Below, piece by piece: positions 7,849 through 62,595 of a stretch of DNA of 64,000 bases; within the stretch, counting starts at the first letter, position 1; each line of letters begins with the position of its first letter. The position numbers and the translations under genes are program-made. Origin of the DNA: Candidatus Nomurabacteria bacterium (GTDB lineage: Bacteria; Patescibacteriota; Minisyncoccia; Phycocordibacterales; UBA9973); contig JAPLXQ010000010.1 in the NCBI GenBank assembly GCA_026395995.1, forward strand, positions 218,179 to 282,178, read 5' to 3'. The notes beneath the pieces are model-generated. The model did not search any database. It saw only the letters and a program-made list of their open reading frames with translations, and was not told the DNA's origin.

Positions 7849-8457
7849 TTAATTTAATTGCTTATAATAACCTGGTAAAAAAGATATTTTATTTATTGGC
7901 AAAAGTCTAATGAGTGCTCTTCCAACTAATAATTTTTTAGGAACCGGACCCCAATATCGAGAGTCTGAACTTCCTGAACGATTGTCTCCCATAACAAAGT
8001 ATTCGTCATTATTTAAAACTTTTATAGAGCTGTCTTCAGAATGATTTTTAACATAACTTTGATCAAGATTAAATCCTTCTGGATGTTCTTTGTTTATTAT
8101 TATTGTTTGTTCAGCTTTTACTTTTACAGTTTCACCAGGTAAACCAATAATTCTTTTTATAAAAAATTTAGATGGATCATTTGGATATCTAAAGACTACG
8201 ACATCACCACGTTTTGGGTTTTGTAAATAATAAGTGATTTCATCAACAATTAAATATTGACCATTTTGAAAAGTTGGCACCATTGAAGTACCCGATACAA
8301 TAAAAGGCTGAGCGACAAAGATTCGAATAGGTATGACTATAACAATCGCTATAAAAGCAAAACGCACAAGTTCCCAGAAAGACTCTTTAAATGATTGCTT
8401 CTTTTCTTGGTTTTCAGGTAACATGTTTGCCACTGCTTCTTCATTTTCTTTTTGCAT
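7849..8457 (-). CDS. lepB: signal peptidase I
   Basis: SGTSMVPTF (Ser box), GDNRSGSSDSRYWG box E. Confidence 0.85.
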   Translation of the reverse strand: MQKENEEAVANMLPENQEKKQSFKESFWELVRFAFIAIVIVIPIRIFVAQPFIVSGTSMVPTFQNGQYLIVDEITYYLQNPKRGDVVVFRYPNDPSKFFIKRIIGLPGETVKVKAEQTIIINKEHPEGFNLDQSYVKNHSEDSSIKVLNNDEYFVMGDNRSGSSDSRYWGPVPKKLLVGRALIRLLPINKISFLPGYYKQLN

Positions 8458-8528
8458 TTGAGTATTTTACCATATAATGTCCTTGACACAATGGTTATTA
8501 TTGTTTTGTAATAAAAATTCACCTAACT

Positions 8529-8599
8529 CGCCCCACCCCGTCTGCTATGCATCCACCCCTCCTCATTTTTTACAAAAAAATGAGGAGGGGAATGGGGGT
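8529..8599. repeat. GC-rich palindromic mini-element (CT-arm/GA-arm family) in the lepB-pth divergent region
   Basis: ccccaccccg...cccctcctcattttttacaaaaaaatgaggaggggaatggggg: a 17-bp perfect inverted repeat flanked by CCCCACCCC/GGGGG, in a 30% GC background. Confidence 0.6.
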
Positions 8600-8629
8600 A
8601 AATTTTTTGAAATATGTTATCATAAATAT

Positions 8630-9154
8630 ATGAAATTAATTGTAGGCTTAGGAAATCCTGGTGAACAATATGAAAATACTCGTCACAATACGGGCCGTAT
8701 TATCATTGGAATGATAGAAGATAAAATAAATACAAAAGTAAAATTTTTAATGCCAGATAGTTTTATGAATAATTCTGGAAAAGTTGTAGCGCCACTTATT
8801 AAATCAAAAAAAGATTTGAGTGATTTGATAGTTATATATGATGATGTTGATTTGCCTCTTGGAAAAATTAAAATTTCTTTTAACAGATCTTCTGGTGGGC
8901 ACAATGGTGTCGGCTCAATAATTAAACATTTAAAGACTGAAGAATTTTTACGTATTCGTGTAGGAATTTGCCCTACGACTCCGACAGGGAAATTAAAGAA
9001 ACCAAAAGGGGAAGAAGCAGTATTAAAATTTCTACTTGGTGATTTTAAAAAAGAAGAATTAGTTATACTTAAAAAAGAAAGTAAAAAAATAGCTGAAGCA
9101 ATAGATATAATCTTTGCTGAAGGGAAAGATAAAGCTATGAGTTTATATAATTAA
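8630..9154 (+). CDS. pth: peptidyl-tRNA hydrolase
   Basis: MKLIVGLGNPGEQYENTRHNTG... canonical Pth N-terminus. Start moved to the internal ATG; the upstream part of the tracked ORF only translates the GC-rich element. Confidence 0.85.
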   Translation: MKLIVGLGNPGEQYENTRHNTGRIIIGMIEDKINTKVKFLMPDSFMNNSGKVVAPLIKSKKDLSDLIVIYDDVDLPLGKIKISFNRSSGGHNGVGSIIKHLKTEEFLRIRVGICPTTPTGKLKKPKGEEAVLKFLLGDFKKEELVILKKESKKIAEAIDIIFAEGKDKAMSLYN

Positions 9155-9171
9155 AAATACATAGGTCTCAC

Positions 9172-9618
9172 CTATGTATTTTTTTTAAATTTAATATTTA
9201 GTACACATCCATCTAATTTTTCTTCTACGTCATAGACATCGGCTGTTGTTTTTTTAGAAAAACGTCTTTTTGTTACAATTGTGCAATATGGTTGAAAAAT
9301 TATTTGAAATTTATAATCTTTTCCAGTAAAAATTATTTCTACCGGATCTTTACCCTGATCCCTTCCTTTAAATTCTATTTTGTAATGATTTTTTTGGCAA
9401 AAATAGACATCAGACGAAAGAATTAGTCCACTTAGAATTGCATTATATTTAGATTTTTTATTTTGAAAATCTAAGATAATAATTTTGTTTTTCTTTATGA
9501 TTTCATCTATTTGTATAGAATATTTTTCATAGCCTGTTTTAAATTCATCCTCTATATATATGAAATTTAATTCCTTTATTAAAGAAATGAAATTTTTTAT
9601 TAAATTACTTTTTTCCAT
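9172..9618 (-). CDS. hypothetical protein
   Basis: 148-aa ORF, no recognisable motif. Confidence 0.4.
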   Translation of the reverse strand: MEKSNLIKNFISLIKELNFIYIEDEFKTGYEKYSIQIDEIIKKNKIIILDFQNKKSKYNAILSGLILSSDVYFCQKNHYKIEFKGRDQGKDPVEIIFTGKDYKFQIIFQPYCTIVTKRRFSKKTTADVYDVEEKLDGCVLNIKFKKNT

Positions 9619-9663
9619 TTTTAAAGAAATTAAGTCTTTTCTTCATTCTAGTCTTTTGTTGTG

Positions 9664-9701
9664 TTATGTCAATCAAAAAAATCCCCTTACGGGGATTTTT
9701 T
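9664..9701 (-). terminator. rho-independent terminator of rpsA (17-bp stem)
   Basis: caatcaaaaaaatcccc ttac ggggatttttttgattg, a perfect long inverted repeat. Confidence 0.7.
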
Positions 9702-9711
9702 TGATTGAAGA

Positions 9712-10815
9712 TTATTTCTTATCTTCTAGGTGAGTCAAAGTCATCTTGTGTTCCTTTGGTTCGAATAGAGTTATTTGGAAACTGTAAGTTTTACCAAGTT
9801 CTAATGATTCACGAAGTTTAGCTTCAGAACCAAATGTAGAATTGTGGACGAGTCCAGCAACACCTTCTTTGATAGAAACCAATGCACCGTGCTTATTGTA
9901 CTTGATGACGACACCTTTGATAATGTCACCCTTTTTCAATTTACCTTCATATTCCTTCCAAGGGTTTTCTTTTAATGCCTTGATTGAAAGAGAAATTTTT
10001 CCATCTTTTATTTCAATAATTTTAGCTTTGATTTTGTCGCCAACTTTGAACATTGTACGAGGATCTTCTACGAGGCCCCAGTCTAGTTCAGAAATGTGCA
10101 CTAATCCTTCTAGACCTTCTTCTAATTTCAAGAAGACTCCGAAATCTACTAGTCCTGCGATAGTACAACTTACTTCTTCACCGACAGCATATTTACTAAC
10201 GATCTCTTGTTTTTCTTCTGGATTATTATCTTTTTCAGAGAAAATTAATTTACCTTCTTTTGGTAATGTAGAAATCATTGTGACAGAAAGTTTTGTACCA
10301 ACCAATTTCTTTAATTCTTTTAAGATTTTATCTTTATCAGAATCTTCAACCCTAGGATAGTGTTCAGCTTTTAGTTGTGAAGCTGGTAAGAATCCTTGAA
10401 TTCCTTGCCATTCTAAAATAAGTCCACCCTTGTTTGCATCTTTTACTTCTAGATCCATCAAGACTTTTGATTTGATTGCTTTTTCAGCATCACTCCAAAT
10501 TAGGGCTTGTTTAGCTTCTTTCAAAGACAATTCAATATAACCATCTTCATTTTCTACTTCTACGATTTTTGCTTTGATGATATCACCGAGAGCGATTTTC
10601 TTGATGATGTCTTTTGCATTCATAAACTCACGTCCATAAATGATACCTGTACCAAATGGTGCAAGGTCAATATATACTGATGACTTTTGAACGAGAATGA
10701 CTGGTCCTTCGACTAAAGCTTCAACTTCTGGACGAGTTAGACTTTTGTCTAACATGATCTTCAAAGGTGAATCTATAACTACAACTTCTTCTTCTGTTAC
10801 TGTTGTTTTTTTCAT
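9712..10815 (-). CDS. rpsA: 30S ribosomal protein S1 (four S1 domains)
   Basis: Repeated S1 OB-fold signatures (GDIIKAKIVEVENEDGYIELSLKEA, VGDKIKAKIIEIKDGKISLSIKAL). Confidence 0.8.
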   Translation of the reverse strand: MKKTTVTEEEVVVIDSPLKIMLDKSLTRPEVEALVEGPVILVQKSSVYIDLAPFGTGIIYGREFMNAKDIIKKIALGDIIKAKIVEVENEDGYIELSLKEAKQALIWSDAEKAIKSKVLMDLEVKDANKGGLILEWQGIQGFLPASQLKAEHYPRVEDSDKDKILKELKKLVGTKLSVTMISTLPKEGKLIFSEKDNNPEEKQEIVSKYAVGEEVSCTIAGLVDFGVFLKLEEGLEGLVHISELDWGLVEDPRTMFKVGDKIKAKIIEIKDGKISLSIKALKENPWKEYEGKLKKGDIIKGVVIKYNKHGALVSIKEGVAGLVHNSTFGSEAKLRESLELGKTYSFQITLFEPKEHKMTLTHLEDKK

Positions 10816-10977
10816 ACTTTTTTATAAATTAAAAATCCGCAGTTCATTCAATATGAAAAGCGGATATAAGGCCTAGGTGTCGGAGGGCTGCATGCCCCTT
10901 CGGTGTTACCCTAAATCCAAACTTTTAATATCTAGATACTACTATATAAGAGGGTAAAATGCAAGACTGTTAATTCA

Positions 10978-11030
10978 ACCCGCCCCACCCCTAACCCCTC
11001 CCCAAAATTTGAAGATTTTAGAGAGGGGAT
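10978..11030. repeat. GC-rich palindromic mini-element (same family)
   Basis: cgccccacccctaacccctcccc aaaatttgaagatttta gagagggg; shares the CGCCCCACCCC plus CCCCTCC/GGAGGGG architecture with 8529-8599. A further GC-rich patch lies at 10870-10915. Confidence 0.5.
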
Positions 11031-11105
11031 TAAGAAGCGATGTGAATTGCAAGAGTTATATTTTTATGGTAATGTAATGGAAAATAATCTTTAAAAAAAT
11101 AAGGT

Positions 11106-11546
11106 ATGAGAAAGAATATGTCCTACAAACAAGTTCCATCAGAAATTTTGGTTATTTTAGAAATCGTAAAAAAATTAGAAAAAACAAAAGCTGAAGAACT
11201 TATGATTATGCATCGTGAAATGGATCCTGAAATAGATGAACTAATAAAAAATACTATTTCAAAATTTTCCAAAGAAGAAAGGGAATTTTATGTTAAAACA
11301 GTTAAAGAATTTAATTTTCGTGATAAAAAATATTACAAAGATGCAAAAATAGAAAAAAGTGATTGGTATGATTATATGGACGAGAGATGTAGATTTGCCA
11401 GTCATCTGCTTGATATTATTGATGTAAGATTAAATCCAGATAGAAAATCATACTCTCTGGAAATTGACTTAGGGAATCCTGGTTATTTTAAACCTAAACC
11501 TGAGCCTAAATCATCTACAAGAAGTTTGGGATTAACTTTTGAATAA
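11106..11546 (+). CDS. hypothetical protein
   Basis: 146-aa ORF followed by a strong terminator. Confidence 0.45.
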   Translation: MRKNMSYKQVPSEILVILEIVKKLEKTKAEELMIMHREMDPEIDELIKNTISKFSKEEREFYVKTVKEFNFRDKKYYKDAKIEKSDWYDYMDERCRFASHLLDIIDVRLNPDRKSYSLEIDLGNPGYFKPKPEPKSSTRSLGLTFE

Positions 11547-15014: not shown

Positions 15015-15023
15015 AATCATTTT

Positions 15024-15557
15024 ATGATTTATTTTGTACGACACGGAGAAAGTGAAGCTAATGTTAGAAATGTCTTTGCTGGACAAAAAGATGATTCGCT
15101 TCTTACTGAAAAAGGTAAGGAACAGGCACTTGCCACTGCTAAAGAAATAAAGAAGGAAAATCTTACTTTCGATCGAATTATTTCTTCGCCACTTCAGAGA
15201 TCTTTAGAAACAGCTAGAATAATTGCAAAAGAAATTGGTTTTGATTTTTCAAACATTATTATAGATAATCGTATTAATGAATATGATATGGGCAGTATTA
15301 CTGGGAAACCTTATGGAGTTATTTCTTCTGAAATTTTAGTGGGTGCTGAAAATGCAGAAAATCCAGAATTATTTAAAGAACGTGTTTATTTTTGTATTAA
15401 AGAATTAAATCAACTACCAGAAAATATATTAGTTGTTAGTCATGCTGGAGTTGGGAGAATATTGGAAACTATAAAAGAAGGTAAAGAAGCAAAATATTTT
15501 TATGATTTACCACCTTTTCCTAATGCTTCTATAATTAAGATAGATTGGATTAAATAA
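15024..15557 (+). CDS. histidine phosphatase family protein (phosphoglycerate mutase-like)
   Basis: MIYFVRHGESEANV (RHGE motif). Confidence 0.75.
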   Translation: MIYFVRHGESEANVRNVFAGQKDDSLLTEKGKEQALATAKEIKKENLTFDRIISSPLQRSLETARIIAKEIGFDFSNIIIDNRINEYDMGSITGKPYGVISSEILVGAENAENPELFKERVYFCIKELNQLPENILVVSHAGVGRILETIKEGKEAKYFYDLPPFPNASIIKIDWIK

Positions 15558-15578
15558 GGTTTTATATTTATTTATAGT

Positions 15579-15599
15579 GTGCAAAGTCGAACTTTGCAC
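15579..15599. repeat. REP-like 21-bp palindrome, copy 1 (inverted relative to copies 2 and 3)
   Basis: gtgcaaagtcgaactttgcac. Confidence 0.7.
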
Positions 15600-15627
15600 A
15601 AATATAATTCTTTTGTATAATTTAATT

Positions 15628-16302
15628 ATGAAAAGTAAAAATATTGCTCCCGAAGAGTATTATCATATTTACAACAGGGGAATGCAAAAACAACCTATTT
15701 TTGAAAATGACTCAGACAGGCTACGTTTTTTATTTTTGATTTTAACCTTTCAAGGTAAAGAACTTATAAAAAATATTAGTCGTGAAGTAAAACAAAATGT
15801 GCAAAGTTCGACTTTGCACATTTCTAAAGAAACAACTAAAAATGTTGCGCAAAATCGACAAGTTGAATTAGTTAGTTTTTGTTTAATGCCAAACCATTTT
15901 CATTTGATTGTAAAAGAAAAAGAAGAAGGTGGAATAGCAAAATATATGCAAAGAATTTTAACTAGCTATACAAAGTATTTTAATAAAAAATATAATAAAA
16001 GCGGACATCTTTTTCAGGGGTCTTATAAGAGTATTTTAATTGAAGATGATCGGCAGTTAATGCATTTGTCTGCCTATATTCATAAAAATCCTTCCGAAAT
16101 TAAAGGTTGGAAAAATAAAGAAGATAAATATTATTGGTCAAGTTATAATGATTATATTTATGAAAATCGTTGGGATGAATTACTTTCACAAAATATTATC
16201 CTAGATAGATATAATATAGATAAAGAAAAGGGAACTTATAAGAAATTCGTCGAAACCAGTTTAGCTAAAGAAACTGTGCAAAGTTCGACTTTGCACAGTT
16301 AA
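15628..16302 (+). CDS. REP-associated tyrosine transposase (RAYT, IS200/IS605 TnpA-like HUH enzyme)
   Basis: YHIYNRG N-terminal motif, HUH motif LMPNHFHLIV, catalytic Tyr region GHLFQGSYKS...YIHKNP; flanked by REP palindromes. Start moved to ATG 15628; the tracked N-terminus translates REP copy 1. Confidence 0.7.
   Translation: MKSKNIAPEEYYHIYNRGMQKQPIFENDSDRLRFLFLILTFQGKELIKNISREVKQNVQSSTLHISKETTKNVAQNRQVELVSFCLMPNHFHLIVKEKEEGGIAKYMQRILTSYTKYFNKKYNKSGHLFQGSYKSILIEDDRQLMHLSAYIHKNPSEIKGWKNKEDKYYWSSYNDYIYENRWDELLSQNIILDRYNIDKEKGTYKKFVETSLAKETVQSSTLHS
15799..15819. repeat. REP-like palindrome, copy 2, inside the RAYT ORF
   Basis: gtgcaaagttcgactttgcac, encodes ..VQSSTLHIS.. in frame. Confidence 0.7.
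16276..16296. repeat. REP-like palindrome, copy 3, at the RAYT 3-prime end
   Basis: gtgcaaagttcgactttgcac, encodes the C-terminal ..VQSSTLHS*. Confidence 0.7.
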
Positions 16303-16309
16303 AAAAAAT

Positions 16310-17236
16310 ATGATTCCAAAACATAATATTTCTAGTTTAGAAGGTAAAGAATTAGAAAAGGCCATCAAAAATGACTTTGGTTTTGAGATTACAAATACAG
16401 AAAAAATAACAAAAGGATATTCTAATCAAGTTTATAAAGGAAATCTTGAAAATAAAAATGTTTTCATAAGGATGAATAAAGACCCTAGAGTGTTCGAAGC
16501 AGAAGTTCTTGGATATAAAAGATTTGAAGAACAAGGTATACCTGTACCAAAAATAATTGCCTATAAAGAAAATCCTTCATCAATTGGACTTCCTGCAATG
16601 ATCATGTCTTCAGCTGAAGGCAATATTATTCCCGAACTAAAGCTGTCTCCAGAAGAAAAGGATATTGTTTTTGAAAATGTAGGAAAATTGTTAAAAAAAA
16701 TTAATGAAACTAAGTTAAAAGGCTACGGTCCTTTAAAGGTAGAGAATGGAGAATTGGTTGGTAAATTTTCAACATATAAAGAGCAAGATGAATCACGCGG
16801 AGAATATAATAAAAAAGTTTTTGATTTTGCAGTAGAAAAGAATTATATAATTGGTGAAGATATTGAAAAAGTTAAAAAAGTATATGAAGAAATTAGTTTA
16901 TTAAATATAGGAAATCAGACATCACTATTGCATCATGATATGCACAGAGGACATTTTTTTGTTAAAGGGACTGAAATATCAGGAATTATTGACCTAGGAG
17001 CTTTGATGGCTGGTGATCCACGATATGATATAGCAATAAGTTTGGCTCATCAACATCCTAGAGAGCAAGAAGCTTTTAAAAAAGGTTATGGTGAATTAGC
17101 TAATGACCCAATGGTGAATAAATATTTAATTACTGTTTTAGTAAGAAAAATATTTTTTAGAAATAAAGACCATGTAAAAGGAAATGTCGAAGCGTTACTT
17201 CCAACCCTAAAGGATGCTTTGGAAAAATTATCTTAA
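16310..17236 (+). CDS. aminoglycoside/choline-kinase-like phosphotransferase (APH family)
   Basis: Catalytic HHDMHRGHFFV (Brenner motif) and IDLGALMAGDPRYDIA (DxG-like) motifs. Confidence 0.65.
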   Translation: MIPKHNISSLEGKELEKAIKNDFGFEITNTEKITKGYSNQVYKGNLENKNVFIRMNKDPRVFEAEVLGYKRFEEQGIPVPKIIAYKENPSSIGLPAMIMSSAEGNIIPELKLSPEEKDIVFENVGKLLKKINETKLKGYGPLKVENGELVGKFSTYKEQDESRGEYNKKVFDFAVEKNYIIGEDIEKVKKVYEEISLLNIGNQTSLLHHDMHRGHFFVKGTEISGIIDLGALMAGDPRYDIAISLAHQHPREQEAFKKGYGELANDPMVNKYLITVLVRKIFFRNKDHVKGNVEALLPTLKDALEKLS

Positions 17237-24656: not shown

Positions 24657-24710
24657 TTCTTGTATGAATTAAATTAATTAATTATTTGTTTAAAAACTTT
24701 TCTTGTGTTA

Positions 24711-24739
24711 AGTATAGCATATACAAACTAAAAAGTCAA
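24711..24739 (-). promoter_or_regulatory. consensus promoter module copy 2 (TTGACT-N17-TGCTATACT)
   Basis: Reverse complement reads gcTTGACTttttagtttgtatatgcTATACTt. Overlaps hairpin gtcaagcttttggcttgac (24735-24753), the probable terminator of the upstream minus-strand gene. Confidence 0.6.
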
Positions 24740-24788
24740 GCTTTTGGCTTGACTTTTTAGGCTTATTTATAAGGGTATTTTTACCTAA

Positions 24789-24813
24789 AATCCCCCTGAT
24801 AAGGGGGACAAAG
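24789..24813. repeat. small GC-rich palindrome (tccccc tgataa ggggga)
   Basis: Member or relative of the CT/GA-arm GC-rich element family; intergenic. Confidence 0.4.
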
Positions 24814-24826
24814 GGGGTTGTATTAG

Positions 24827-25579
24827 TTAGGCTTTCTTTAAAGCTAAATTTTTATCTTTCTTAGCTATAAAGAGCATTCTCCAGAAGAAGACGAAGAATA
24901 AGATTAATATACCGAGTAAGATCCATTGAAGGAAAGTAGAAGGCATAAATCCTGATCCTAGGGCATTCGCTGTCAGATTACTGTTTGTATTTGAAACTGC
25001 AGTTTTGCTAGTAGTAGCTTTTTTTGCAGTCGTAGCAGTATTTGCTGGTGGATAATCTCCGACAGGGTTTCCAGATGAGGCTACTGTTCCTACGGCTGAA
25101 GTATTATTGGTTAGATTTAAATAAGCAGCGTTTGAGATATATCCATTGTTTGGGTTGTAAATAGAAACAATGTAAGTACCTACTGTGCCCATATCTGCTG
25201 GATAAATATTCATACGTAAGTGAGTAGAGTTTATATAAGTAGTAGGTCTGTCATAACTATTAAATCTAGCTACAGAATCTTGTGAGAAATTTACTCCTGT
25301 GATATCGATAGTCTTTACAGCAGTACTTCCATAAACCATTGAATCAGGACTTATAGAATAAATCGCTGGTACAGCATAAGAACTAGAATTATTATTGCTA
25401 TTACCGTTGTTATTATTATTTGAGTTTGAATTTCCTGAATTAGAACTACCTGGTCCAGACCAATAATAAACATAAGCACTAGCCTTTGCAGGTATAAATA
25501 CCACCGCCACGAAAACTAAAGTTATTATTAATGTTGAAAGTAAACTATATTTATTTGTGTTGTTTATTTTATTCATCAT
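24827..25579 (-). CDS. secreted Asn/Ser-rich protein with C-terminal TM anchor
   Basis: Signal peptide, NSNSNNNNNGNSNNNSSS low-complexity, C-terminal hydrophobic helix plus basic tail. Confidence 0.45.
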   Translation of the reverse strand: MMNKINNTNKYSLLSTLIITLVFVAVVFIPAKASAYVYYWSGPGSSNSGNSNSNNNNNGNSNNNSSSYAVPAIYSISPDSMVYGSTAVKTIDITGVNFSQDSVARFNSYDRPTTYINSTHLRMNIYPADMGTVGTYIVSIYNPNNGYISNAAYLNLTNNTSAVGTVASSGNPVGDYPPANTATTAKKATTSKTAVSNTNSNLTANALGSGFMPSTFLQWILLGILILFFVFFWRMLFIAKKDKNLALKKA

Positions 25580-25585
25580 ACTACA

Positions 25586-25614
25586 AGTATAGCATATATG
25601 AATTTAAAAGTCAA
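25586..25614 (-). promoter_or_regulatory. consensus promoter module copy 3
   Basis: Reverse complement reads gaCTTGACTtttaaattcatatatgcTATACTtg; the -10 abuts the start codon (leaderless or very short leader). Confidence 0.55.
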
Positions 25615-25641
25615 GTCCTATTAATAAATTATTAAAACCCT

Positions 25642-26778: not shown

Positions 26779-26799
26779 TTATTTATTATAACAAATTTG

Positions 26800-26881
26800 T
26801 GCTGGAGGAGGGACTCGAACCCTCAAACCTTGCGGTACTAGTTCCTAAGACTAGCGCGTATACCAATTCCGCCACTCCAGC
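26800..26881 (-). tRNA. tRNA-Leu (anticodon TAG)
   Basis: Sense gctggagtggcggaattggtatacgcgctagtcttaggaactagtaccgcaaggtttgagggttcgagtccctcctccagca; long variable arm, loop cuUAGga. Confidence 0.8.
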
Positions 26882-26885
26882 AATG

Positions 26886-26958
26886 TGCACCCAGCAGGGA
26901 TCGAACCTGCGACATTCTCCTTAAGAGGGAGCTACTCTACCAGCTGAGTTATGGGTGC
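26886..26958 (-). tRNA. tRNA-Lys (anticodon CTT)
   Basis: Cloverleaf with acceptor gcaccca/tgggtgc, anticodon loop ctCTTaa. Confidence 0.7.
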
Positions 26959-27060
26959 ATATATTACTTCTATCTTTCTTTCAACTTACAAATTACTATT
27001 TTTCTCGTCCTACCAAAACAGTTATGGGTGCTTTTCAAAAAATCAAAAATTTGATTTCTG

Positions 27061-27079
27061 GTGCCCGGAGTGGGGGTCG
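27061..27079. repeat. 19-bp direct repeat of the tRNA-Leu(TAA) 3-prime end (second copy 27179-27197)
   Basis: gtgcccggagtgggggtcg occurs twice, about 100 bp apart, bracketing a short non-tRNA insert. Confidence 0.65.
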
Positions 27080-27179
27080 GCTATTACATAGCCAGGTGCT
27101 TTTCAATTTACTACGTAAATAATGAAAAGCCTTTCGACTCCCCACACGAAAGCAAAGCAGTTTGCTTTCTTCCGTGCTG

Positions 27180-27261
27180 TGCCCGGAGTGGGGGTCGAAC
27201 CCACATCCCTTGCGAGACACGATTTTAAGTCGTGCGCGTATACCAATTCCGCCATCCGGGC
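27180..27261 (-). tRNA. tRNA-Leu (anticodon TAA)
   Basis: Acceptor gcccgga/tccgggc, long variable arm, loop ctTAAaa. Confidence 0.8.
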
Positions 27262-27378
27262 AATGTATTTAATTATAAATTAAAAATATTAATTAACAAC
27301 CTATCGCTGGTTCAGCTTCGCTTCACATCAGCGATTTCATTCTGAACCGGCAAAAAATTAAAACTATTTAATTTTTTG

Positions 27379-27450
27379 AGGCCTGGGACGGAATTGAACC
27401 GTCGTATATTCCTTTTGCAGAGGAATGCCTTACCACTTGGCTACCAGGCC
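27379..27450 (-). tRNA. tRNA-Cys (anticodon GCA)
   Basis: Acceptor ggcctgg/ccaggcc, loop ctGCAaa. Confidence 0.8.
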
Positions 27451-27483: not shown

Positions 27484-27516
27484 TCTCCTTTACTAAGGCG
27501 GGTGAGGTGCTTATTT
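27484..27516. repeat. GC-rich CT/GA-arm mini-element (intergenic copy)
   Basis: cctatccctctcctttactaaggcgggtgaggtg; closely related to the copy inside infB. Confidence 0.5.
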
Positions 27517-27847: not shown

Positions 27848-29347
27848 TTATTTTTGGACGACAGCGAAACACTCGATAATATCTCCGGCGACAATTTCTA
27901 TTTTTGATTCAATCATCATACCACACTCGTCACCTTCGAGAGCAGCACTCGTCTTTGTCTTGCCTTTTTCCAAGTTTACTATTTTTCCACGACCAATTTC
28001 AAAATCTCTTCTTATTATTTTGACTACTTGGTCTAAAATTATTTTACCTTCTGTTACTTTTCCTCCGACTATTTGTTTTTCTTTTGTACGAGAAAAAGCT
28101 TTTATTATTTTCAATTTACCAATAGTCTCTACTGTCTCTATTCTTGGGCGTCTCTTCTCCATCTCTTCTTTTAGCCAATCAGTCATTTTGTATATAATAT
28201 CAAAAGTAGAAAGTGTAATATTTAATTTGTCTGCTAGGTCGATGGCATTTTTATCAGCTTTCATATTAAAAGCGATAATGATAGCATTCTCTCCAGCAAT
28301 TGCATTTTTCACATCAGATTCAGAGATTGGTCCGATACCTCTTTGGACTATTCTAAATTCAGCACTTTCACTGTTTATTTTACTTATTTCTTTTTCAATA
28401 GCTTCGAGTGATCCACCAGCATCAGCTTTTAAGATAATAGGAATCATTTTTTTATCTGATTTTACCCCCTCTCCTTTATAAGGAGAGGGCTGGGGTGAGG
28501 TTCTTTCTGAATTTTTTTCTAAATCTTTTTTGTTCTCAAAAGCCATAAATTCACTACCGACTTTTGGTACTTTGTCGAAGCCTACGAGGCGGACAGGGGA
28601 TGAAAAGGTCGATTCACCTATTACTTTTCCTAAAAAGTTTTCCATAATACGTGTACCACAAGAAGCATCTTCTACTGCTACTATCATTCCTTTTTTCAGA
28701 CTTCCGTTTTTAATTATCAAAGTCGCTTGAATACCTCTTTTAGAATCCAAATTTGCTTCAAGTACAAAGCCACTAGCAGGTAGAGACGTGTCTCCGGTAA
28801 AGCTTTCCATTTCAGCTAAGACTAAAATCAAAGAAAGCAATTCATCGACACCAGTGCCGACTTTTGCAGATACCAATACAAATGGAGTTTGTCCTCCAAA
28901 GTTTTCAAGATATATTTCGTGTTCAGCTAAGTTTATTTTTGTACGTTCAATATCAGCTCCTGGTTTATCAATTTTATTGATAGCGACGATACAAGGTGTA
29001 TTACTTTCTACGATTGTTTTATAAGCTTCGATGGTTTGAGGTTTTACTCCGTCTTCAGCTGAAACCATAAGAATTGCAATGTCTGCGATTTTAGCCCCAC
29101 GTTCACGCATTTTAGAAAAAGCTTCATGTCCAGGAGTATCGAGAAAAGTTATTTTTTTATCTTTCCCATTTTCGTCTTTATGAATTACTTCATAAGCAGA
29201 AATGTGTTGAGTTATACCTCCAGCTTCACGGTCGACAATATTTGTCTTGCGAATATAATCTAGCAAGGTTGATTTACCGTGGTCGATATGACCCATCACT
29301 GCGACCACTGGAGGTCTCTCTATTAGATTGTTTTTTTTATTTTCCAT
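27848..29347 (-). CDS. infB: translation initiation factor IF-2 (short form)
   Basis: G domain [30 protein letters not shown], domain II, and C-terminal IF2 domains. Contains an in-frame GC-rich palindromic insertion (28458-28498). Confidence 0.9.
28458..28498. repeat. GC-rich palindromic mini-element inserted in-frame within infB
   Basis: accccctctcctttataaggagagggctggggtgagg; on the coding strand it translates to [13 protein letters not shown] in the inter-domain linker. Confidence 0.6.
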
Positions 29348-35777: not shown

Positions 35778-35942
35778 ATGTCAAACGATAGACTTTTTAG
35801 ATTAAAATGCAGTACTTGCAAGAACGCCAATTATTACAGTACTAAAAATAAGAAACTCGTCACTAAAAAGATTGAGCTTTTGAAGTTTTGTAAAACTTGC
35901 CGAAAGAAAACTAAACACAAAGAAGCCAAAATTACTGGCTAA
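35778..35942 (+). CDS. rpmG: 50S ribosomal protein L33 (missed by the 60-aa ORF cutoff)
   Basis: MSNDRLFRLKCSTCKNANYYSTKNKKLVTKKIELLKFCKTCRKKTKHKEAKITG: two CxxC pairs and the KHKE tail typical of L33; terminator follows at 35959-35984. Confidence 0.7.
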   Translation: MSNDRLFRLKCSTCKNANYYSTKNKKLVTKKIELLKFCKTCRKKTKHKEAKITG

Positions 35943-35984: not shown

Positions 35985-36130
35985 AATATAGAAATAATTT
36001 TAAATTTTTAATTCTTGTGATATAATAAGGTCGGCAGTAAATGTTTGCTGCTTGCTCTTTATTTTTTAGGGATCAATTCGTAATGATTTGGTCCTAGGGG
36101 GTACGTAATTTATTAATTTTGCGCTATCCC

Positions 36131-36160
36131 TGCTCCTCCGATTTTATCGGAGGACGTGGG
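36131..36160. repeat. GC-rich CT/GA-arm palindrome (tcctccgat ttt atcggagga) within a structured 300-bp intergenic region
   Basis: 9-bp perfect inverted repeat flanked by ccc/ggg; the 35985-36281 region also carries an extended -10 (tgatataat at 36018-36026) and several further hairpins. Confidence 0.45.
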
Positions 36161-36281
36161 CGATTTATAGTCGGTATAATTTTGGAGTTCAACTCTCCAG
36201 TCGTCCTCAATTTTAGTTCGTAAAATAGTTTAGTATTTCATTTTTTGTTTGTTGTAGTATAATAGTTATGTAACCCTATGA

Positions 36282-36950
36282 GTGGGTTTTATTATGAAAA
36301 AAGATTTACAACAAAAAGCAAAGAAATTAAGAGCTGAGGGTTATTCAATTAAAGAACTTCAGAATATTTTAAATGTATCAAAGAGTACAATTTCTTTATG
36401 GGTAAGAGATATTGAACTTTCTAAAGATGCTCAAATACGCATTCAAAATAATTACACAAAAGGTCAATTGGCTTCTCAAAAAACTATACAAAAACAAACT
36501 CAAGAAAAAAATATTTTAGCTGATAGTTTCGCAGAAAATATTATCAAACAAATAGATATTTCTTTTGAAAATTCATTAGTATTGTGTTCGATGATATATC
36601 AGTGTGAGGGTAGTAAAAACATAAAAGATTCTGTTACTTTTACAAATTCTGATCCAGCTCTAATAAAGAATTTCTTGTTCTTTTTTAGAAAAAGTTTTCA
36701 TTTAGATGAAAGTAAATTCAGAGTTTTAATGCACTTACATAGTTATCATAATGAAAATACGCAAAAGAAATTTTGGTCTAATATTACAAATATTCCCACA
36801 AAAAATTTTTTAAAAACTTTCAATAAAGAAAGTACTGGTTCTTATAAAAAAGAAGGGTATCAAGGATGTATTCAAGTTCGTTATCGTGATGTTGTAATGG
36901 GTAGAAAAATTCAAGCGGTTGCAAAAAAGTTTATGGAAAGGTATAAATAG
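36282..36950 (+). CDS. HTH-domain protein with putative single-motif LAGLIDADG-like endonuclease domain (paralog A)
   Basis: N-terminal HTH (KKLRAEGYSIKELQNILNVSKSTISLWV); core LVLCSMIYQCEGSK...NSDP...FLFFFRKSF is homologous to 61541-62167 and resembles LAGLIDADG helix plus beta-sheet. Ends 8 nt before tRNA-Trp. Confidence 0.4.
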   Translation: MGFIMKKDLQQKAKKLRAEGYSIKELQNILNVSKSTISLWVRDIELSKDAQIRIQNNYTKGQLASQKTIQKQTQEKNILADSFAENIIKQIDISFENSLVLCSMIYQCEGSKNIKDSVTFTNSDPALIKNFLFFFRKSFHLDESKFRVLMHLHSYHNENTQKKFWSNITNIPTKNFLKTFNKESTGSYKKEGYQGCIQVRYRDVVMGRKIQAVAKKFMERYK

Positions 36951-36957
36951 TATGCAC

Positions 36958-37028
36958 GGGCCTATAGTTCAGTGGTAGAATAAACGTCTCCAACACGTTT
37001 GACCGGGGTTCGAATCCTCGTGGGCCCG
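36958..37028 (+). tRNA. tRNA-Trp (anticodon CCA)
   Basis: Acceptor gggccta/tgggccc, loop ctCCAac. Confidence 0.75.
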
Positions 37029-37051
37029 CAAAAATTTGATATACTAGTTAC

Positions 37052-39154: not shown

Positions 39155-39826
39155 GTGCCAGTCTATAAAAAGGTAAATAAAGATTTTTTTAAAAAATGGT
39201 CACCTGAAATGGCTTATGTTTTAGGTTTTTTATTTGCTGATGGAAATATTGTTCATACAAAAAGAAATACTTGGTTTTGGTCTTTACAAATTACCGATAA
39301 GGATATTTTAATAAAGATAAAAAAAGAAATTAATTCATCACATAAGGTTTCGTTTAAAAAGAAGGTTTTAAATAATAAACAGTTGTATCGTTTACAGATT
39401 GGAAGCAAAGAAATGTGTGAAGATTTAATTAAATTAGGTTTAACTCCACAAAAAAGTAAAACAATGATATTTCCACAAGTTCCAGAAAAATATTTTTCTG
39501 ATTTTTTGCGTGGTTATTTTGATGGAGATGGTGGAGTTTGGTTTGGTTTAAAAAATAAAAAAAATATTAATCAATCTTATGTAATTAATGTTTGCTTTAC
39601 TTCAGGTAGTAAAGATTTTTTAATCTTCCTGAGAGGTATTTTGAATAAAAAATCTATTTTAGGTGGTTCTTTGGTAGAAAAAGAAAGAGGGTTTGATTTA
39701 AAATATAGTATCAAAAATTCTTTGATTTTATATAAAATAATGTATAATAGTAATGTTCTCAAAAATAACCTGTTTTTAGAAAGAAAAAGAGCTATTTTTG
39801 AGAAGTTTATATGTTTGCGATCGTAG
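39155..39826 (+). CDS. LAGLIDADG homing endonuclease (double-motif, single-chain type)
   Basis: Two motifs: LGFLFADGNI and LRGYFDGDGGVWF. The stop codon overlaps the first 10 nt of the intron-containing tRNA. Confidence 0.7.
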   Translation: MPVYKKVNKDFFKKWSPEMAYVLGFLFADGNIVHTKRNTWFWSLQITDKDILIKIKKEINSSHKVSFKKKVLNNKQLYRLQIGSKEMCEDLIKLGLTPQKSKTMIFPQVPEKYFSDFLRGYFDGDGGVWFGLKNKKNINQSYVINVCFTSGSKDFLIFLRGILNKKSILGGSLVEKERGFDLKYSIKNSLILYKIMYNSNVLKNNLFLERKRAIFEKFICLRS

Positions 39827-40130
39827 CTCAACTGGTTAGAGCACCCGCCTGTAGATTCGTGCAGCTTTCTGTCGAAATGGCAGATTGAAACTCTTTGGGA
39901 TATCGGTGAAGGCTAAGTTTGCCGTTTTGGTGAATATGCGAATACCGAGGGAACCCTTCCACATTTTTACTTTATAATAAATAAGTAAAGAGAAGGGGCG
40001 CCGTAGAGACTAGATACCGAAGCACCTAAATTCATTTTAATGAACACGGTGAAGATATAGTCCACGCCTTTATGAAAATATTGGATTTAGTGCACGTGGG
40101 AGGTTGCCGGTTCAAGCCCGGTCGATCGCG
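39817..40130 (+). tRNA. tRNA-Asp (anticodon GTC) interrupted by a group I-like intron; exons 39817-39852 and 40093-40130
   Basis: The exons assemble into a cloverleaf with acceptor gcgatcg/cgatcgc, D-arm gctcaactggttagagc, anticodon stem cccgc/gtggg, loop ctGT|Cac, discriminator G; the intron sits between anticodon positions 35 and 36. Confidence 0.6.
39853..40092 (+). other. group I-like intron (about 240 nt) within the tRNA-Asp anticodon loop
   Basis: The 5-prime splice site follows U and the intron ends in G; gtgcagc can pair with exon ccugu (P1); P7 halves AGACTAg... and AAGATATAGTCc match the conserved R/S elements; size matches known bacterial tRNA group I introns. Confidence 0.6.
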
Positions 40131-40206
40131 CAAATGAAAAACACCTATTTAAGTATAGGTGTTTTTCTGTATAGTGATTGGATAGGAGAACTGGTATAAT
40201 CATTTT

Positions 40207-54232: not shown

Positions 54233-54237
54233 TATTG

Positions 54238-54308
54238 CTGCCAGACCTGGACTCGAACCAAGATAGTCTCCTTCAGAGGGAGATGTCCTACCATTAGACG
54301 ATCTGGCA
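54238..54308 (-). tRNA. tRNA-Gln (anticodon CTG)
   Basis: Sense tgccagatcgtctaatggtaggacatctccctctgaaggagactatcttggttcgagtccaggtctggcag; U1-A72, loop ctCTGaa. Confidence 0.65.
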
Positions 54309-54430
54309 ATGTTTATATTCTGTCTTTTAAAAACCTTCTTCCAAATCGATTCTTTAAATCTTCTGTATACCCTATATAAAGATTTTCATCTTTTGAACTT
54401 TTTAAAACATAAGTGTAATACATCTTGTTT

Positions 54431-54495
54431 ATGTCCTACCATTACCCGCCCGCAACGCCTGAGCTTGCGATGGCGGGCGGGGACGATCTGGCAAT
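54431..54495. repeat. partial duplicate of the tRNA-Gln 5-prime region, itself split by a 38-bp GC-rich palindrome
   Basis: atgtcctaccatta + cccgcccgcaacgcctgagcttgcgatggcgggcgggg + acgatctggcaat reproduces 54283-54310 of the tRNA, with the palindrome replacing a single G. Confidence 0.6.
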
Positions 54496-54566
54496 ACTTT
54501 AACAGTAGCTTAAAAAAGCTAATTATTCAACTTTATTTTATTATTGTGCTATTATAGTACAATAAA

Positions 54567-58826: not shown

Positions 58827-60665
58827 ATGGATTTAAAGAAAATTAGAAATTTTAGTATCATAGCACACATTGACCACGGGAAATCTACCTTGGCTGATAG
58901 AATGCTCGAAATAACTCATACGATTGAGACACGTAAAATGCGTGACCAGGTTCTTGATTCTATGGAGCTTGAACGAGAAAGAGGTATTACTATCAAAATG
59001 CAACCAGTGCGTATGGAATATAAGATGCACCCCCTCCCAACCTCCCCCTTAGCGAAGGGGGAGGAGAACACCACATACACTTTAAACCTTATAGATACTC
59101 CAGGACATATAGACTTTTCCTATGAAGTTTCTCGTGCTTTAAAGGCCGTAGAAGGGTCTATTTTGCTCGTTGACTCAACTCAGGGGGTCCAGGCTCAAAC
59201 ACTTACTACACTCGCTATGGCTCGTGAGGGAGGGCTTAAAATCATCCCTGTACTCTCAAAAATAGACTCACCACTTTCTCGTGTAGATGATGTCAAAGAT
59301 GAAGTTATAAAGCTTTTAGATTGTGATCCAGATGAGATACTTCTCGTTTCTGGACGTACAGGCGAAGGTGTAGAAAATCTTTTAAATGAAGTCATAAAAA
59401 GAGTGCCACCTCCAGTCGAAACTTTTATAGACACCACTAGTTGCCGTGCACTTATTTTTGATTTTAAATATTCAAATCACAAGGGTGTGATTGTTTATGT
59501 GCGAGTTCTTGATGGAAAAATTTCCAAAAATGAAAATTTACTTTTTTCTGTTTCTAAAGAAAAATTTACCTCACTCGAAGTTGGAACATTTTCTCCAGAA
59601 GAAACTCCTTGTGAATTTTTAAAAGCAGGTGAGACAGGATATATTGTGACTGGTATTAAAAAGCCTGGTATTGCGAGCGTCGGAGATACTATTACATTAT
59701 TGAAAAATCCATTGCCAGAACTTCCTGGATATATGCAACCTCGCCCTGTCGTCTGGGCTTCAGTTTTCCCTGAAGATGCAGATCAATTTAACGATTTGAA
59801 AGCAGCCCTCGGCAAACTTCGTCTTTCTGATTCATCTTTTTCTTACGAAGAAGAGTCTAGTGGATCACTCGGACGTGGTTTTCGTTGTGGTTTTCTTGGT
59901 ATGCTTCATTTGGAAATTGTTATTGAAAGATTGAAAAGAGAATTTAATTTGGCCTTAGTGGTGACTACTCCATCTATTACTTATGAAGTGACTTTAAATA
60001 ATGGTAAAAAAGAAAAAATATATTCACCATATTTTTTCCCTGAAGAGGGAAACATAAAAGAAGTTTTTGAGCCTTGGGTTTTTGTAAAAATTATTACCCC
60101 ATCTATTTATCTTGGTCCAATAATGCAATTGCTTTTTGTGCATGAAGCAGAAGTGGGTGAGACAGAAAGTTTTGGAGACAATCGCTCATCAATATCACTC
60201 AAAATGCCACTACGTGAATTGATGCGAAACTTTTTTGATGAATTGAAATCTGTCTCTTCTGGTTATGCTTCTATTTCCTATGAAATTGCTGAAATGCGTG
60301 AAGCCAATGTGACTCGTTTAGACTTGCTTGTGGCTGAAGAAATTATCCCAGCTTTCTCTCGAGTTGTATCTAGAAAAAGAGTTCAAGAAGATGCTGAAGA
60401 AGCCGTAGAAAAATTACATAAACTTTTACCAAGGCAAATGTTTGCGACAAAAATCCAAGGTAAAGCCTTGGGTAAAATTATCTCCTCAAAAACCACTCAA
60501 GCTTTTATGAAAGATGTGACACAGCATATGTATGGAGGAGATATTACTCGTAAAATGAAGCTTCGAGAAAAACAAAAGAAAGGTAAAAAGAAGATGAAAG
60601 AGCGTGGACGCGTAAATATACCTCAAGAGGTTTTTCTTAAGATGATGAGAAGTGGGGAAAATTAA
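58827..60665 (+). CDS. lepA: elongation factor 4 (LepA)
   Basis: [21 protein letters not shown], LepA-specific C-terminal domain. Carries an in-frame GC-rich palindromic insertion (59028-59072) in the G domain. Confidence 0.9.
   Translation: [612 protein letters not shown]
59028..59072. repeat. GC-rich palindromic mini-element inserted in-frame within lepA
   Basis: gcaccccctcccaacctcccccttagcgaagggggaggagaac; stem ctccccctt/aagggggag; encodes [14 protein letters not shown] where LepA orthologs have only a few residues. Confidence 0.6.
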
Positions 60666-62541: not shown

Positions 62542-62556
62542 AAGCCAAGATAGCTG
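62542..62556. repeat. 15-bp direct repeat of the tRNA-Phe 5-prime end (second copy 62593-62607)
   Basis: taagccaagatagct is duplicated 51 bp upstream of the tRNA. Confidence 0.55.
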
Positions 62557-62595
62557 TTTTAGTAAATAACGCAGAATTTTAAAATTAAATAATAA

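Follow-up and report, generated by a model that had tools for sequence, protein, structure and literature searches.

We analysed 64,000 nucleotides (nt) of a Candidatus Nomurabacteria genome (Patescibacteria, candidate phyla radiation, CPR; GC content 32.8 %), hereafter the window, for short GC-rich palindromic elements scattered through it. Judging from their sequences, these elements are probably dispersed intrastrand triplex motifs of the class that includes BoxC, PIT and TMECO of E. coli. Each unit comprises three blocks on one strand: a C/T arm (Y), its G/A complement (R) and a second G-rich block (RH) that mirrors R, as in CCCCTCTCC / GGAGAGGGG / tta / GGGGTGAGG. Read backwards, GGAGAGGGG is GGGGAGAGG, which with the tail GGGGTGAGG gives G·G, T·A and A·A triads. 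Pattern scans and relatives gave as the consistent unit a hairpin of CCCCTCTC(C/T), an AT-rich loop and (G/A)GAGAGGGG, followed after 2-6 nt by the G-rich tail GGGGTGAGG; the unit upstream of rpsA in the related locus L058, for example, reads CCCCTCTCC aaataaaaattt GGAGAGGGG tta GGGGTGAGG and is followed by a -35 box.

The window was compared with 80 related rpsA loci (L001-L080), further loci (L081-L083, L204), IMG/VR viral contigs (L084-L203) and IF2 and LepA orthologs from Paceibacteria (P0001-P0240). The orthologs were fetched separately; tblastn of both proteins against the rpsA loci returned nearly nothing, synteny being too short. The rpsA gene of the window (9712-10815, -) is 99 % identical to that of the metagenome-assembled genome (MAG) RE-4nov15-362. 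We scanned the window with a triad rule asking for a purine arm R of at least 7 nt with at least 50 % G, a Watson-Crick pyrimidine arm Y upstream of it (at most one mismatch) and a mirror block RH downstream (G against G, A or T against A, at most one mismatch). The scan returned exactly five loci, 8531-8589(-), 10984-11028(-), 24791-24818(+), 28467-28501(+) and 59028-59064(-), with 7-10 triads and 0-1 mismatch per locus. In 200 dinucleotide shuffles of the window the mean was 0.3 +/- 0.6 and the maximum 3, which bears out the dispersed, over-represented family proposed in the initial annotation of this DNA. The copies, including a decayed one, are the following:

8529..8599, - strand: copy 1, a long-form triplex motif between lepB (7849-8457, -) and pth (8630-9154, +)
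10981..11029, - strand: copy 2, a short-form triplex motif between rpsA (9712-10815, -) and an unannotated open reading frame (ORF) at 11106-11546 (+)
24791..24818, + strand: short variant with 7 triads, 9 nt after the stop codon of gene 24827-25579 (-)
27486..27509, + strand: decayed copy, purine arm lost, between rbfA and tRNA-Cys
28467..28501, + strand: triplex motif in frame in the IF2 gene (27848-29347, -)
59028..59064, - strand: triplex motif in frame in lepA (58827-60665, +), with 9 of 10 triads

The 11-mer CGCCCCACCCC occurs in the window only at 8529 and 10981, in copies 1 and 2 (0.08 expected), and CCCCTCC occurs five times (1.5 expected). A covariance model, R1, was built from 14 units of relatives with the structure given by hand, a first MAFFT alignment of the units having been poor on account of their variable loops. 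In the window R1 matched 10981-11029 (60 bits), 28465-28502 (32 bits, E 4e-7), 8551-8600 (31 bits), 59028-59065 (E 0.06) and, weakly, 27486-27509 (7.8 bits, E 3), with no match at 24789-24813, 36131-36160 or 54445-54482. In 1.24 Mb of related loci it identified about 21 distinct copies, confined to 10 of the 80 loci. Despite the R1 miss, 24789-24813 belongs to the structural class, because the triad-rule scan returns it as 24791-24818.

Four of the six loci first grouped as one family are therefore retained (8529-8599, 10978-11030, 24789-24813 and the decayed 27484-27516), and the two copies within ORFs, 28467-28501 in IF2 and 59028-59064 in LepA, had been missed. The weak assignment of 27486-27509 to the family was made by eye from its alignment to 28465-28502. 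The purine arm at 36131-36160 contains a C, and the same hairpin stands 5' of an intact tRNA-Trp in L081; 54445-54482 is a CCGCCCGC...GCGGGCGG palindrome of a different family, and a GC patch at 10870-10915, taken for a further relative, is instead part of the conserved rpsA 5' leader. The description of the elements as by far the most GC-rich spots was too strong: tRNAs, ordinary terminators (2832, 11558, 23134) and coding stretches equal them, and the copies at 24791 and 28467 fail a 0.68 cut. What had been read as a variant arm, the CCCCACCCC-type block, is the complement of the third block mirroring the purine arm. The suggestion of a structural role anticipated the best reading, while the view of a two-armed palindrome had overlooked the third block.

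The order Y-R-RH is common to the five window loci and to all related and viral copies. Five different arms occur in the clade, and the third block changes with each of them: GGAGAGGGG is accompanied by GGGGTGAGG, GGGGAGGGG by GGGGTGGGG, AGGGGGA by AGGGGGT, AAGGGGGAGG by GGAGGGGGTG and AGGGAGGGG by GGGGTGGGT. When the window copies were folded as DNA with ViennaRNA, which models Watson-Crick pairs only, the Y/R hairpin formed and RH stayed unpaired. Variants of the unit include copies with the complementary block ACCTCACCCC also on the other side, a type with a conserved 16-nt linker TGGATGCGAAGCAGAC (copy 1 and L034 9042-9111) and tail-out (inverted) doublets at L028 1035-1138, L033 9757-9860 and L055 2609-2717.

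A pattern scan of the IMG/VR viral contigs found the triplex-motif core in at least 120 contigs, the sampled ones spanning 37-73 % GC; the element is therefore not specific to CPR bacteria. The pattern left the purine free at one position of the arm and at its mirror position in the tail, each without regard to the other, and hence admitted all four combinations. Among the matches listed, R and RH agreed in 159 of 164 viral copies (AA 91, GG 68, GA 5, AG 0), a concordance of 97 % where 51 % is expected (Fisher 1e-40). The Watson-Crick partner was concordant in 139 of the 164, so that the link between R and RH is the tighter one, and both states, A and G, occur in dozens of viral contigs of very different composition. 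The covariation of R and RH across many independent copies is comparative evidence for maintenance of the mirror or triplex geometry as such. With regard to arrangement, viral contigs hold up to 5 copies per 3-7 kb, all on one strand in each multi-copy contig examined (L086, L088, L089, L098, L140, L156), some inside ORFs and others directly past stop codons.

A literature search for palindromic repeats or MITEs in Patescibacteria/CPR yielded nothing; the link to triplex work came from a full-text search with the two G-rich strings. The BoxC/PIT element of E. coli is reportedly also to be credited to Bachellier (1990s) and to Hoyne and Maher (2000). Holder et al. (2015, Nucleic Acids Research 43:10126, PMC4666352) treated intrastrand triplex motifs, among them TMECO, a name for what is otherwise called BoxC in E. 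coli or, by Maher, the PIT element. Their class II definition of ITxF asks for the order Y, R, RH from 5' to 3' on one strand, for a third block that joins R in antiparallel orientation through G·G, A·A or T·A triads, for a stem of 6-15 nt holding no more than one mismatch and for two loops of 1-6 nt each; G/C-rich motifs with long stems should be more frequent than in scrambled sequence (PMC4666352). TMECO has the pattern CCCTCNCCC N3-6 GGGNGAGGG N3 GGGNGAGGG, in the order pyrimidine arm, purine arm, reverse-Hoogsteen block, with TTA or CCG as loop 2. It is present in 23 copies in MG1655, five of them forming inverted pairs, and in 3610 copies in 262 proteobacterial genomes, and its isolated strand forms a stable triplex in vitro by circular dichroism and nuclear magnetic resonance (PMC4666352). 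TMECO loci are more rearranged between strains, and the motif is described as "always intergenic" and as having no link to mobile elements or phages (PMC4666352).

The window units resemble BoxC/TMECO in having Y-R-RH on one strand, 8-10 nt G/C-rich arms of nearly the same sequence (E. coli CCCTCTCCC / GGGAGAGGG / GGGTGAGGG, window family CCCCTCTCC / GGAGAGGGG / GGGGTGAGG), a T·A triad at the centre and a 3-nt loop 2 (TTA in copy 2), in the inverted doublets of relatives L028, L033 and L055, and in tens of dispersed copies with strong strain-to-strain differences, located near variable loci. They differ from TMECO in an AT-rich loop 1 of 4-20 nt (3-6 nt in TMECO), in a long form with a 16-nt second loop and in their host, a 33 % GC Patescibacteria genome instead of Proteobacteria. 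Furthermore, two of about six window copies lie in frame inside ORFs, unlike the always intergenic TMECO, and a related pattern is frequent in IMG/VR viral contigs, whereas no phage association is reported for TMECO. By their sequence, the window elements correspond to the generic class II purine-motif definition except in loop length. We class them as intrastrand triplex repeats of a known kind, not as TMECO itself, and they reveal no new kind of system. What is new is that the host is a CPR bacterium, that the loops are long and AT-rich, that a long form has a 16-nt loop 2 and that copies lie in frame in coding sequence, together with the dated empty sites and the comparative evidence for maintenance of the third block.

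Several observations weigh against this assignment. The exact TMECO consensus matches nowhere in the window, the register being shifted by one C/G and the loops longer. Loop 1 has 4, 9, 10, 19 and 20 nt in the five loci, and loop 2, which has 3 nt in four of the five, has 16-18 nt in copy 1; both ranges go beyond the 1-6 nt of the class II definition, which should weaken the fold. Kinship among copies inflates the covariation counts, and the mirror repeat could reflect how copies are generated instead of selection on the fold. In vivo dimethyl sulphate footprinting saw no stable TMECO triplex in duplex DNA (PMC4666352). In nucleotide alignments, the empty IF2 and LepA sites described below are not clean insertions, neighbouring bases differing too, and no target-site duplication was seen at either. 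The variable neighbourhoods of the window copies fit the reported association of TMECO with rearranged loci, a link that is anecdotal.

The + strand of copy 1 reads CGCCCCACCCC, 16 nt, CCCCTCCTCATTTTTT aca AAAAAATGAGGAGGGG, aat, GGGGG. On the - strand, the Y arm (8590-8582) is CCCCTCCTC, the R arm (8564-8556) GAGGAGGGG, loop 2 TGGATGCATAGCAGAC (16 nt, with a GCATAGC mini-hairpin inside) and the RH block (8539-8531) GGGGTGGGG, with 8 of 9 triads; a weaker third block, GGGGGT, lies on the + strand at 8594-8599. This copy is a single-hairpin palindromic form (-20.8 kcal/mol, z -5.5). Its sequence in the lepB/pth spacer is as initially described, with a perfect stem that reaches 16 bp, not 17. L034 9042-9111 is a homolog, linker included. 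Copy 1 might have a regulatory role at the pth promoter, as initially suggested; in L003 and L004 the orthologous lepB-pth spacer simply lacks the element, being ~60 nt shorter with conserved flanking promoter sequences.

Copy 2 reads CCCCTCTCT aaaatcttcaaatttt GGGGAGGGG tta GGGGTGGGG(CGGG) and lies 14 nt upstream of the -35 box of the rpsA promoter. The gene upstream of it is divergent, so copy 2 is no terminator there. A unit occupies the same position and orientation in 8 related genomes, L076 carrying a CCCCCT variant at this position, and the loop of copy 2 is identical to that of L012 6084, though the loci differ. In the same-species MAG L001, homology stops 20 nt from copy 2, and where the window has 621 nt with copy 2 and ORF 11106-11546, L001 has 1141 nt that encode a protein of 324 amino acids (aa); as the whole segment is replaced, a clean strain-level presence or absence of copy 2 was not obtainable from this comparison.

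The 24791 copy reads TCCCCCT gata AGGGGGA caa AGGGGGT, with near-identical relatives at L076 9309 and L065 2430. Read on the transcribed strand, the hairpin has TTTT directly behind it, as in a terminator. The orthologous spacer of L081 holds a canonical CCCCTCTCC/GGAGAGGGG/GGGGGTGAGG unit in the same orientation, and both units lie 8-10 nt past the stop codon, with a T-run next on the transcribed strand, and just ahead of a TTGACT-N17-TATACT promoter. The 24791 copy probably doubles as a terminator. The decayed copy at 27486 reads CCCTCTCC tttactaa GG, the lost purine arm, and cGGGTGAGGTG; L081 lacks this copy and has an inverted tRNA-Cys right next to rbfA. The inversion belongs to a rearrangement of the whole tRNA cluster at 26799-27450 relative to L081.

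That the elements act at the RNA level, as intrinsic terminators or mRNA-stabilising hairpins with stems conspicuous only through the AT-rich genome, is what the 24791 copy and its L081 counterpart would suggest, with the stop codon 8-10 nt behind, a T-run and the next promoter just ahead. It also fits the AT-rich viral contigs L117, L147 and L158, in which the element starts 2-7 nt past a stop codon, and the ordinary GC-rich terminator hairpins present in the window at 2832, 11558 and 23134. Nevertheless we find this explanation improbable for the family: copies 1 and 2 stand between divergently transcribed genes, two copies lie within ORFs, most copies lack a T-run, only 24791 qualifies as a terminator, and a terminator needs no conserved third block covarying with the purine arm. 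Moreover, PIT elements showed neither terminator nor promoter activity in E. coli (cited in PMC4666352). Rfam gave nothing relevant besides tRNAs, neither for the whole window at the gathering threshold nor for 8400-11150 at E up to 10. The terminator reading was rejected for most copies on gene orientation, in keeping with the initial view that these are not ordinary terminators, for which copies 1 and 2 between divergent genes and the two further copies inside ORFs speak. The small RNA hairpins also considered there found no support, given the lack of an Rfam match, the mixed orientation to genes and the published statement that purine-motif triplexes do not form in RNA (PMC4666352).

The copy in the IF2 gene reads CCCTCTCC tttataa GGAGAGGG ctg GGGTGAGG; its C-rich strand is the sense strand and encodes part of the hypervariable inter-domain linker. 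It is present in orthologs P0001-P0003/L083 and absent, by protein and nucleotide alignment, from the 90 %-identical P0004/P0005 (L081, L082), which have an unrelated linker of similar length instead. The LepA copy, CCTCCCCCTT cgct AAGGGGGAGG ttg GGAGGGGGTG, encodes HPLPTSPLAKGEE and lengthens a presumed surface loop of the GTPase domain by 36 nt (12 aa), opposite an 11-residue gap in solved EF4 structures. The closest LepA ortholog, P0121/L204 (95 % aa and 87 % nt identity), has 600 aa instead of 612 and lacks exactly those 36 nt. In P0001-P0240, the IF2 linker (28440-28530) and the LepA loop (59015-59075) are short-insertion hot spots in many Paceibacteria lineages, and from these alignments both look like recurrent landing sites. 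Several peptides inserted at these spots resemble translated GC palindromes at the peptide level, the only level at which they were judged, e.g. PPSPDRRGAGGE.

Rickettsia palindromic elements (RPE) are small palindromic repeats of a reduced genome that occur in spacers and in frame in ORFs, where they add surface-exposed peptides; they are 100-150 bp long and AT-richer. To our knowledge, RPE are a sequence family without a triplex mirror block, and we expect no sequence relationship to the window elements. The likeness is in behaviour only, namely in-frame ORF copies (LepA, IF2) and orthologs without the segment, whereas length and sequence differ.

REPs are defined by their association with a RAYT gene and by a conserved 5' tetranucleotide. 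The window elements are like REP, BIME and REPIN sequences in being short palindromes, single or in inverted doublets, and patchy among strains, which raises the question whether a transposase such as Y1/RAYT mobilises them as non-autonomous elements of REP/REPIN or MITE type, the third block then being its recognition sequence and no triplex strand. Comparison of insertion sites between relatives, as the initial annotation had recommended, did reveal empty sites at lepB-pth (L003, L004), LepA (P0121/L204) and IF2 (L081, L082). Also in favour are the dispersal and patchiness of the copies, the 9-10 nt inverted blocks ACCTCACCCC ... GGGGTGAGGT on either side of some forms, the likeness of the doublets to REPINs and an IS200-like Y1 transposase encoded in the window (15629-16302; PF01797, E 4e-14). 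However, this Y1 gene, the only one in the window, is flanked by and contains a different palindrome, TGTGCAAAGT(T)CGA(A)CTTTGCACA, in three copies and not the triplex motif, a comparison that covers 64 kb of genome. No target-site duplications or clean insertion boundaries were found; an architecture with arm-specific mirror blocks recurring across contigs of 37-73 % GC fits a structural rule better than the site of one enzyme, and the asymmetric block of the window elements obeys the mirror rule, unlike REP/REPIN. TMECO is likewise unlinked to mobile elements (Holder et al., PMC4666352). We therefore hold such transposition to be rather improbable. The RAYT/REP reading was rejected, the Y1_Tnp gene being flanked by TGTGCAAAGT..ACTTTGCACA palindromes and not by triplex motifs. 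The earlier remark that the elements may be mobile receives indirect support from the 10 of 80 rpsA loci that are occupied and from the empty orthologous sites.

It was also considered that the two G-rich blocks fold into a G-quadruplex, or the C strand into an i-motif. Copy 2 holds GGGGAGGGGTTAGGGGTGGGG at 10983-11003, a canonical four-tract motif and the sole one in the window, and the G-rich half of a Klebsiella BoxC-like repeat, GGGAGAGGGCCGGGGTGAGGG, is listed as a measured G-quadruplex with a melting temperature of about 59 C (PMC11170735), which speaks for such a fold. Four G-tracts, each of 3 or more and separated by loops of 1-7 nt, are, however, present in only one of the five copies; the conserved complementary C/T arm would be left unexplained, as would the covariation of R and RH at their A positions, which a quadruplex would place in its loops. 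This makes the G-quadruplex a highly improbable account of the family, and it was rejected, one copy (10983-11003) qualifying and the other four not. The terminator, transposable and G-quadruplex readings may each describe a secondary property.

If the elements are intrastrand triplex motifs, Y and R would pair as a Watson-Crick hairpin and RH would mirror R (G against G, A or T against A). Where the DNA becomes single-stranded in replication, repair or transcription, RH could occupy the major groove in antiparallel orientation, giving G·G.C, A·A.T and T·A.T triads. By analogy with the E. coli relatives, such folding would be only transient and would serve no dedicated promoter or terminator role; the E. 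coli literature suggests that it may interfere with polymerases or replication and cause local instability. The same analogy would have the element act mainly as a self-propagating or recurrently generated, instability-prone repeat, persisting where harm is small, in spacers and in protein surface loops or linkers. Single copies might be co-opted as terminator hairpins when a T-run follows, as at 24791.

The surroundings of the elements showed further features. The rpsA leader (10816-10926, -), which includes the GC patch 10870-10915, is conserved and structured, with the order GGAUUUAGGGUAAC, variable stem-loop, ACCUAAGCC, UUAUAUCCGC, loop, GCGGAUUUUU, start codon. It is present in about 75 of the 80 related loci, its inner stem shows compensatory changes, and Rfam gave no match to it. 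The 5' GGAU of the leader could compete with a terminator-like AUCCGC/GCGGAU hairpin, and we regard the leader as a candidate for S1 autoregulation. Small hairpin inserts, e.g. CAGCCAGAGGCTGATCCGCCTCAGGCGGAAA and CCCCGACGTAAAAGTCGGGGTCCCGAC, occur in the rpsA leaders of several relatives. The rpsA gene and many other genes in relatives use cTTGCAttttt...TAtAGTAgTAT, and a repeat AAGTATAGCATAT...AAAAGTCAAG occurs at 1255-1286, 24710-24741 and 25585-25616, where on the - strand it resembles a TTGACT-N17-TATACT promoter upstream of - strand genes.

Between rpmG (35778-35942) and tRNA-Trp, the region 36020-36160 (+) is conserved and apparently structured and holds the hairpin CTCCTCCGAT/ATCGGAGGA; window and L081 differ by compensatory changes (GCAGTAaatgtTTGCTGC against GCAGTACatgtGTACTGC), and the region had no Rfam match. 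It may be a non-coding RNA or a tRNA leader, the hairpin at 36131-36160 lying directly 5' of the intact tRNA-Trp in L081. At the 5' end of tRNA-Trp, ~790 nt with ORF 36282-36950 are inserted (36156-37029): a duplicate of its initial 10 nt (GTGGGCGATT) lies at 36156-36165 and the full-length tRNA at 36958-37029, while the region is uninterrupted in L081. The ORF encodes 222 aa with weak HTH_7/HTH_23 matches, and a LAGLIDADG-like ORF of similar size (39155-39826) follows tRNA-Met. In tRNA-Asp(GUC) (39817-40141, +), a group I intron at 39851-40084 splits the anticodon loop (Rfam RF00028, 49.8 bits against a gathering score of 50, E 7e-12); it was missed by ARAGORN and by the gathering-threshold scan, and the L081 tRNA is intact and intron-less. 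Partial tRNA copies comprise a tRNA-Leu 3' fragment and a tRNA-Phe 5' fragment (27055-27087, 62544-62564; L081 12040-12075).

The duplicated 5' half of tRNA-Gln at 54430-54497 (gene 54237-54308, -) carries a 37-nt GC palindrome, CCGCCCGC...GCGGGCGG, in its D-arm; L008, L064 and L066 have related palindromes, and the rpsA ORF of L067 contains a similar one in frame. These palindromes are a second GC-rich palindrome family, without the triplex block. The 23-nt palindrome of the Y1 transposase lies at 15578, 15798 and 16275 (region 15564-16311); at 15798 and 16275 it is in frame inside the transposase gene and encodes ..VQSSTLH.., and 15018-17233 around the gene is absent from the same-species MAG L001. 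A palindromic doublet, TTCCCCTATGTCAGACATAGGGGAA or similar, occurs at L020 14354-14405, L054 14519-14570, L033 15513-15562 and L080 15003-15053. From such sequences, Paceibacteria spacers seem rich in small palindromic insert families.

BoxC/TMECO-type motifs have been known for decades. That their architecture does well in a Patescibacteria genome of 33 % GC means that it does not simply follow from base composition. The empty LepA and IF2 sites provide dated gain events and natural material on how such repeats arise, and annotation of CPR genomes should reckon with short Pro/Ser...Gly/Glu stretches that triplex-type repeats have inserted into conserved proteins. A bolder and, in our estimate, unlikely view is that triplex-forming repeats are a structure-defined, not sequence-defined, class of selfish DNA that propagates across very distant hosts; the spread behind it comprises Proteobacteria and Cyanobacteria from the literature, CPR and at least 120 viral contigs. 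Within this view, a third strand kept in register with the arm better than the Watson-Crick partner would imply that the triplex, or an enzyme reading the triplex, operates in vivo, and the repeats may, as the translated copies suggest, repeatedly write short Pro/Ser...Gly/Glu peptides into the same surface loops of two essential proteins, the IF2 linker and the LepA G-domain loop. If true, such repeats would be a general generator of genome rearrangement and protein-loop variation in reduced genomes.

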